Source of the DNA: Clostridia bacterium
Lineage (GTDB): Bacteria; Bacillota; Clostridia; TANB77; CAG-508
Reading direction: 5' to 3'
DNA: 64,000 nt
Assembly: GCA_017939755.1 (NCBI GenBank)
Contig: JAGBAJ010000016.1
Span: 16,302-80,301, forward strand
The stretch's first letter is position 1, and each line of letters opens with the position of its first letter. The notes beneath the pieces were generated by a model, which saw nothing but the letters and a program-made list of their open reading frames with translations, did no database searches and was not told the origin of the DNA. Position numbers and translations under genes: made by a program. This document shows, piece after piece, positions 52,033 through 52,336 of this stretch.

Positions 52033-52078
52033 TTACGAATTTAGTTTAAACAAATGAAATAATATAGGAGGTATGAAT

Positions 52079-52246
52079 ATGTTAGAAAAATATTTAAATA
52101 GAAAAGTTGGAGTTTGCATTTTTAATGCTACACAAATTCCTGGTTTTGAAAAGGGAATTGTTACAGCAGTGGATGAAAACTTTATCGAATTAGACAATGA
52201 TTTAACAATTGCAATCAAATATATTATTTCAATAAAAGCTAAATAA
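52079..52246 (+). CDS. 55-aa small protein inserted between rplW and rplB, Sm/Hfq-like-patterned paralog family (P5)
   Basis: Own translation gives MLEKYLNRKVGVCIFNATQIPGFEKGIVTAVDENFIELDNDLTIAIKYIISIKAK. AGGAGG lies 7 nt upstream. It is a close paralog of 21801-21971. It is below the ORF-track length cutoff, and the 91-aa minus ORF 52033-52308 is its shadow. Confidence 0.6.
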   Translation: MLEKYLNRKVGVCIFNATQIPGFEKGIVTAVDENFIELDNDLTIAIKYIISIKAK

Positions 52247-52336
52247 TAATATCGAGAATTAACTCGGATAATAAAAAATATCTGCAAATGGAGCAGGAAA
52301 AAATCCATTAAAAATTATAAAAGGAGAGAATAAAAA

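Follow-up and report, generated by a model that had tools for sequence, protein, structure and literature searches.

The S10 ribosomal protein operon of the window (the whole stretch of 64,000 nucleotides that was analysed, with a G+C content of 30%) contains rpsJ (50002-50334), rplC (50422-51048), rplD encoding L4 (51065-51688), and rplW encoding the 114-aa L23 (51688-52032, + strand, PF00276), followed by rplB encoding the 275-aa L2 (52337-53164, + strand) and then by rpsS, rplV, and rpsC. Few bacterial gene orders are as strongly conserved as that of the S10 operon, and a further protein gene retained inside it across a whole lineage is therefore unusual. Between the rplW stop codon (52030-52032) and the rplB ATG (52337), in an otherwise standard cluster, lies a spacer of 304 nt (52033-52336) that holds a 55-aa ORF, hereafter ORF55 (52079-52246, + strand). 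ORF55 ends in a double stop, TAA TAA (52244-52249), and is led by a Shine-Dalgarno sequence, AGGAGG (52066-52071, + strand), placed 7 nt 5' of its ATG; these coordinates agree with those of the original prediction. GenBank already lists its product (MBP3707337.1, J6J36_01850), annotated as a hypothetical protein, from a 'Clostridia bacterium' MAG. The 90 nt that follow ORF55 contain a conserved RNA motif, the rplB-leader motif (52250-52309, + strand), and the Shine-Dalgarno sequence of rplB, GGAGAG (52323-52328, + strand). It had been supposed that this junction is normally a short spacer, extended to 304 nt by the ORF. The presence of the ORF was borne out, but the spacer measures 58-124 nt, with the conserved RNA motif, in five relatives that lack the ORF, and 90 nt of the 304 are accounted for by the RNA element.

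A consensus scan found a promoter-like site, TTGACA-17-TATAAT, with a 12/12 consensus match (49729-49757, + strand), which is the probable promoter of the S10 operon. This site lies about 245 nt 5' of rpsJ and would leave a long untranslated leader. The + strand of the rplW-rplB spacer has no predicted promoter-like or terminator-like site, in agreement with the placing of a Shine-Dalgarno-led gene inside the operon; together with the site 5' of rpsJ, this suggests that ORF55 is co-transcribed with the S10 genes. At its C-terminus, L23 is extended by about 20 aa rich in lysine, a feature common to relatives with and without ORF55. Elsewhere in the window, a glmS ribozyme (93 bits; 14280-14441, minus strand) lies 5' of a 611-aa ORF (12396-14231) that is probably glmS, and tRNA genes occupy 11155-11226 and 18032-18112.

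Several observations indicate that ORF55 is almost certainly a real gene. Against four diverged orthologues (Nei-Gojobori), dN/dS was 0.10-0.26 for ORF55, 0.07-0.15 for rplW, and 0.06-0.11 for rplD, and a purine-rich GGAG-type stretch preceded the ORF in every orthologous locus read. The identical protein was found in five contigs, at the rplW-rplB junction every time. In addition, the codon usage of ORF55 gave a log-likelihood score (ribosomal versus other genes) of +0.043, inside the range of ribosomal genes; among 54-codon windows it stands at the 21st percentile of the ribosomal ones and is reached by only 6% of those from other genes. The four paralogues of ORF55 in the window scored -0.08 to -0.20, like ordinary genes. 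The mechanical ORF list gives a 57-aa form that starts at an in-frame ATG two codons earlier (52073). Methionine occupies the 55-aa start position in 78% of 87 family members, and in a closely related locus, L005, a GTG stands in place of the ATG at 52079, with unchanged spacing to the Shine-Dalgarno sequence; this GTG and the family N-terminus, MLEKFLNK, favour the 55-aa form. Its predicted tryptic peptides are VGVCIFNATQIPGFEK, GIVTAVDENFIELDNDLTIAIK, and YIISIK. Since ORF55 is short, lies in AT-rich DNA, and falls under the 60-aa cut-off of automatic tracks, it might instead have arisen by chance, be a regulatory upstream ORF, or be the shadow of an antisense 91-aa gene (52033-52308, minus strand). 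We find this hardly credible: the protein sequence is under purifying selection, which rejects a regulatory upstream ORF, HMMER recovered 85 homologous clusters, and the fold is predicted with very high confidence. The antisense ORF is cut to 51 aa in L005 and is therefore spurious, as had been predicted.

The RNA motif downstream of ORF55 is non-coding and separate from the ORF. It consists of a hairpin (52253-56/52263-66) and a possible H-type pseudoknot with stems S1 (52282-85/52293-96) and S2 (52288-92/52304-08) and an A-rich loop, and follows the pattern UAUC-NNG-loop-CNN-GGA-NAAUAAA, then UAUCUGC-...AUGGA-GCAGGAAAAAAUCCAU. In 11 distinct sequences, 97.9% of the cells pair and six pairs change on both sides; none of 500 shuffles reached these values, and slid controls collapsed. 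Helices 1 and 3 covary, and helix 2, which would make the H-type pseudoknot, is invariant. A covariance model found a single copy of the motif in the window; of 18 loci, 16 had it, once each, 5' of rplB. The motif loci comprise the window, L005, L008-L015, and L020-L031, and include L031, which was not used in training, and relatives without the ORF; the model did not find the motif in L016. The motif stands in the same place where the ORF is missing, and is independent of ORF55. Rfam gave no match, at gathering thresholds or at E<=10, in the spacers of the window, L005, and L012. The known candidate L2 leader has been described only from Alphaproteobacteria (PMC7247131), and the present motif could be a new candidate for an L2 or ribosomal leader in this clostridial lineage. 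At three or four loci only, the motif is separated from rplB by an additional conserved non-coding stretch of about 130 nt (L005 645-795, L009 4270-4420, L012 593-745, and probably L031 3241-3399); it had no Rfam match in L005 or L012.

To place ORF55 in a family, a three-sequence profile was run in an exhaustive HMMER search of 1.84 billion representatives, which yielded 85 clusters of homologues of 43-99 aa at E<=1e-3. Word-indexed searches with ORF55 and with its paralogue at 21801-21971 had returned almost only the queries themselves, and a search for related loci with a 14-sequence subset gave one in GTDB species genomes and five in metagenomes. The named members are all 'hypothetical' proteins of uncultured gut MAGs, and the 'Clostridia bacterium' MAGs with related loci come from ruminant and human gut. 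The family consensus is MLEKFLNKKVxI-(variable loop)-KGxVTxIDDNFIELDNxxxIAIKYIxSI, and the conserved polar positions in the 87-member alignment are N7, K8, T29, D32, D/E33, E37, D39, N40, K47, and Y48, which include an acidic stretch, D32-D/E33-x-F-I-E37-L-D39-N. Both sets of paralogues named in the original prediction were recovered. The close one, of 56 aa (21801-21971, + strand), is 46% identical to ORF55 (E 3e-15), shares the motif that had been quoted, and adjoins an ABC transporter gene outside any ribosomal operon; its relatives of the P0012 type lie near comEC and yhcG, away from ribosomal genes. The remote ones are three tandem ORFs of 110, 102, and 72 aa between guaB and guaA (41750-42082, 42133-42441, and 42524-42742, + strand), which match the family profile over their first ~50 residues with an hhalign probability of 96% (E 2e-9). 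Each of the three has a long insertion and then a C-terminal strand resembling IAIKYIISI. The guaB-guaA locus is another conserved housekeeping pair split by genes of this Sm-fold family.

The AlphaFold2 model of ORF55, built from the 87-sequence alignment, had a mean pLDDT of 96.1, with a helix at residues 2-5 followed by strands at 9-14, 22-31, 35-38, 42-45, and 49-54. In Foldseek comparison with the PDB, the spore-coat protein GerQ was the best match (8zra, TMq 0.83), and dozens of Hfq chains matched with TMq 0.7-0.8, a probability of 1.0, and 15-20% identity. On this model ORF55 very probably adopts the Sm fold, and the earlier label 'Sm-like' is borne out as a statement about fold. Hfq forms homo-hexameric rings, which bind single-stranded RNA rich in U or A, and its Sm2 motif, Y-K-H-A-I-S, lines the proximal pore. 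ORF55 resembles Hfq (PF17209) in its predicted short N-terminal helix and five-stranded bent antiparallel sheet and in its size; by alignment, its register G-x-V-T-x-x-D-x-x-F-I-x-L would correspond to G34...D40...L46 of Hfq, and its pair K47-Y48 would take the position of K56-H57. It differs in its shorter N-terminal helix, in its neutral charge and conserved acidic stretch, and in the replacement of the Sm2 motif by I-K-Y-I-x-S across the family (K47 74%, Y48 74%, H 5%). For an RNA binder, a neutral charge and a conserved run of acidic residues are unusual features. Moreover, the top match, GerQ, is a spore-coat filament protein, so the fold alone does not imply RNA binding. GerQ itself shares only 10% identity with ORF55 (E 0.07) and forms coat filaments, whereas nothing in the genomic context of ORF55 suggests sporulation.

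Sequence comparison did not tie ORF55 to a named family. The Hfq Pfam profile gave no match to ORF55 at E<=10 and matched one of the 87 family members (E 0.002), hhalign of the family against four Hfq sequences gave a probability of 8%, and two profiles searched against PDB sequences recovered no relative and no Hfq. Weak PDB sequence matches to CalpT10 and Bcl-2-like proteins were rejected as chance. DUF6897 (PF21838) and MM0924 (NF041655) have the same length, 57-58 positions, and show weak full-length matches. The DUF6897 cut-off is 23.9 bits, and ORF55 (12.7) and the 21801 paralogue (19.1) both fall below it, with 20 of 87 family members matching at E<=0.01 (best 3e-7); for MM0924_fam, with a cut-off of 45 bits, the 21801 paralogue scored 17.2, ORF55 had no match, and 15 of 87 members matched at E<=0.01. 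A literature search on DUF6897, MM0924, and S10 operon insertions found nothing relevant. Membership of ORF55 in Hfq, DUF6897, or MM0924 is not supported by these profiles. By its predicted fold, ORF55 would add a new variant to the Sm-fold superfamily, and its genomic context had not been described before.

All homologues of the S10 type (MLEKFLNK...FIELDN) with readable context (L001-L016 and L031/32) lie between rplW and rplB, in about 12 lineages that diverge down to 65% L4+L23 identity. Carriers of ORF55 range from L005, with ~90% nt identity, through L006-8, L010, and L011 (76-82% aa identity), to L009, L012, and L013 (46-52%) and L031/32 (P0021; 44%); L014 carries two tandem copies, and L015 and L016 (P0010) carry the gene at the same junction. 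Relatives without the ORF were found by looking up L23 homologues, and comprise L028/29, L023/24, L030, L020-22, and L025-27, whose L23 is 88%, 84%, 79%, 78%, and 76% identical to that of the window, respectively. The conservation in relatives expected from the original prediction thus holds for purifying selection on the protein, but not for presence, as the ORF is missing from close relatives. This absence argues against essentiality, not against a real gene. In a neighbour-joining tree, whose low bootstrap values were probably depressed by rooting and whose topology gives rough support only, the relatives without the ORF nest among carriers, and the deepest branches (L016, L013/L031, L014, and L009) are all carriers. 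Where the ORF is missing, the gap has clean edges within the interval bounded by the rplW stop and the RNA motif; between L028 and L010, for instance, the indel starts immediately after the rplW stop codon and ends right before the motif. Within the limits that this rough tree sets on telling loss from gain, ORF55 was probably present at the junction in the ancestor of the lineage and was then lost repeatedly, at least three times; alternatively, it may have been gained repeatedly. ORF55 looks like an old but dispensable, lineage-restricted accessory gene of uncultured low-GC gut Clostridia.

The small protein diverges several-fold faster than its flanks: ORF55 is 76% identical where L23 is 94% identical, and 42-52% identical where L23 is 62-69% and L2 ~81% identical. 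Between L006 and L011 the difference is confined to the ORF, with rplD 98%, rplW 97%, the upstream spacer 98%, and the 22 nt read downstream of the ORF 100% identical, whereas the ORF shows only 76% nt identity. Its dS is 0.89 against 0.07-0.10 in the flanks, with a dN/dS of 0.21. Such an excess of synonymous changes speaks for allelic replacement or gene conversion rather than for positive selection alone, and suggests that the ORF alleles of L006 and L011 were exchanged or converted, perhaps from paralogues. In L014 (1973-2954), the junction holds four small ORFs of 40, 64, 68, and 77 aa, of which the last two are tandem Sm-fold paralogues and the first two have no family match. The hyperdivergence in L006/L011 and the four ORFs of L014 indicate that the junction is a site of turnover in this lineage.

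Turnover of this kind raises the possibility that ORF55 is a passenger cassette, with the junction serving as a permissive, highly transcribed landing site and the protein having a function unrelated to ribosomes, for example in stress, in competition, or as a structural component. The presence or absence of the ORF among close relatives with clean indel boundaries, the divergence limited to the ORF in L006/L011, and the two ORFs of L014 unrelated to the family would all be expected of such a cassette, as would paralogues between guaB and guaA, beside an ABC transporter gene, and near comEC and yhcG, and a coat protein as top fold match. The patchy presence, the divergence confined to the ORF, and the paralogues in unrelated operons suit a passenger just as well as the reading that we prefer. 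However, the S10-type subfamily was found only at the rplW-rplB junction, in about 12 lineages and to a deep divergence, and its ribosomal-like codon usage sets ORF55 apart from its paralogues. Furthermore, the deletion boundaries contain no repeats, integrase, or other mobility signature. No viral-contig, PHROGs, or PADLOC match indicated a mobile or defence element; across PHROGs, PADLOC, BFVD, and IMG/VR there was no sign of a phage or defence origin for the family, and the viral structure library BFVD returned only uncharacterised small barrels for the ORF55 model. We therefore consider a passenger cassette rather unlikely, although it is the strongest of the alternatives.

The original prediction had proposed a stoichiometric role associated with the ribosome or with RNA, and its strictest form would make ORF55 a structural ribosomal protein new and specific to the lineage, with one copy in each ribosome. 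The position in the S10 operon, the strong Shine-Dalgarno sequence, and the ribosomal-like codon usage are what such a protein would show, and DUF4295 offers a precedent (10.1101/494179). Other points speak against this role. At least five sampled relatives nested among carriers lack the ORF, probably by loss, and the protein diverges far faster than L23 and L2. It has a pI of 6.1 and a net charge of 0 (family median pI 6.75), whereas the neighbouring ribosomal proteins have a pI of 9.4-10.5 and a net charge of +5 to +25. Its loop is variable in length, the proteins ranging from 51 to 78 aa; the gene is duplicated in tandem in L014; and paralogues occur in non-ribosomal contexts. A structural ribosomal protein is accordingly improbable. 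Its charge might instead suit an acidic escort, in which the conserved face formed by D32, D/E33, E37, and D39 would bind the basic L2, or the lysine-rich C-terminal extension of L23, during or just after translation. The gene does sit directly between those of L23 (net +10, with the ~20-aa extension) and L2 (net +25), yet relatives without the ORF keep the same L23 extension (114-115 aa), the paralogues in non-ribosomal operons do not fit, and the proposal is pure inference. We regard it as more improbable still.

The reading that we prefer is that ORF55 is an accessory Sm-fold gene for which an optional helper role is inferred, and as a whole we place it evenly between right and wrong. According to this reading, ORF55 would be translated from the mRNA of the S10 operon by means of a strong ribosome-binding site of its own, and its output should therefore follow ribosome synthesis. 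It has been kept under purifying selection at the exact site in many sub-lineages; it would also have been deleted cleanly at least three times, with alleles exchanged or converted, and so be dispensable. Like other Sm-fold proteins, it would assemble into a ring, and the ring would bind single-stranded RNA or, perhaps, neighbouring ribosomal proteins by their basic tails. ORF55 would then assist translation or ribosome biogenesis as an optional factor, and would not be a structural ribosomal protein. The optional Sm-type oligomer is suggested by the fold, the operon position, and the archaeal precedent of an Sm gene paired with rpl37e. The link of its function to RNA or the ribosome, taken by itself, is tentative and falls somewhat short of an even chance. 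More specifically, ORF55 might be an as yet unrecognised, lineage-specific Sm-ring factor that physically contacts the ribosome, its precursor particles, or the S10 mRNA (e.g. the possible rplB-leader pseudoknot) and thereby makes the synthesis of L2 or the assembly of the 50S subunit depend on its own level, a version that we consider distinctly doubtful. Were it true, it would provide the first bacterial Sm-fold protein hard-wired in the S10 operon, mirroring archaeal SmAP-L37e. If ORF55 binds RNA or ribosomal proteins, it would represent a bacterial case of the unexplained archaeal link between Sm and ribosomal genes, and would give a first functional handle on the DUF6897-like small proteins that uncultured gut Clostridia encode. 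Natural strains with and without the ORF exist, which makes the question testable by comparison.

Two known systems come close to this arrangement. In archaea, Sm genes are co-transcribed with rpl37e, and a role in processing rRNA or structured RNA has been suggested (PMC3710371). There, as here, an Sm-fold gene is paired with a ribosomal protein gene. In contrast, the archaeal SmAP is a true LSm member that is nearly universal in archaea and adjoins a different ribosomal protein gene, whereas ORF55 is bacterial, patchy in distribution, and located in the S10 operon. DUF4295 is an overlooked small ORF by the L28 and L33 genes whose association with the ribosome was proposed from its context, and it is broadly conserved, in 182 species of four phyla (10.1101/494179). 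ORF55 is likewise a small ORF that had escaped notice within a cluster of ribosomal protein genes, but unlike DUF4295 it is confined to one uncultured clostridial lineage, in which it has probably been lost repeatedly.
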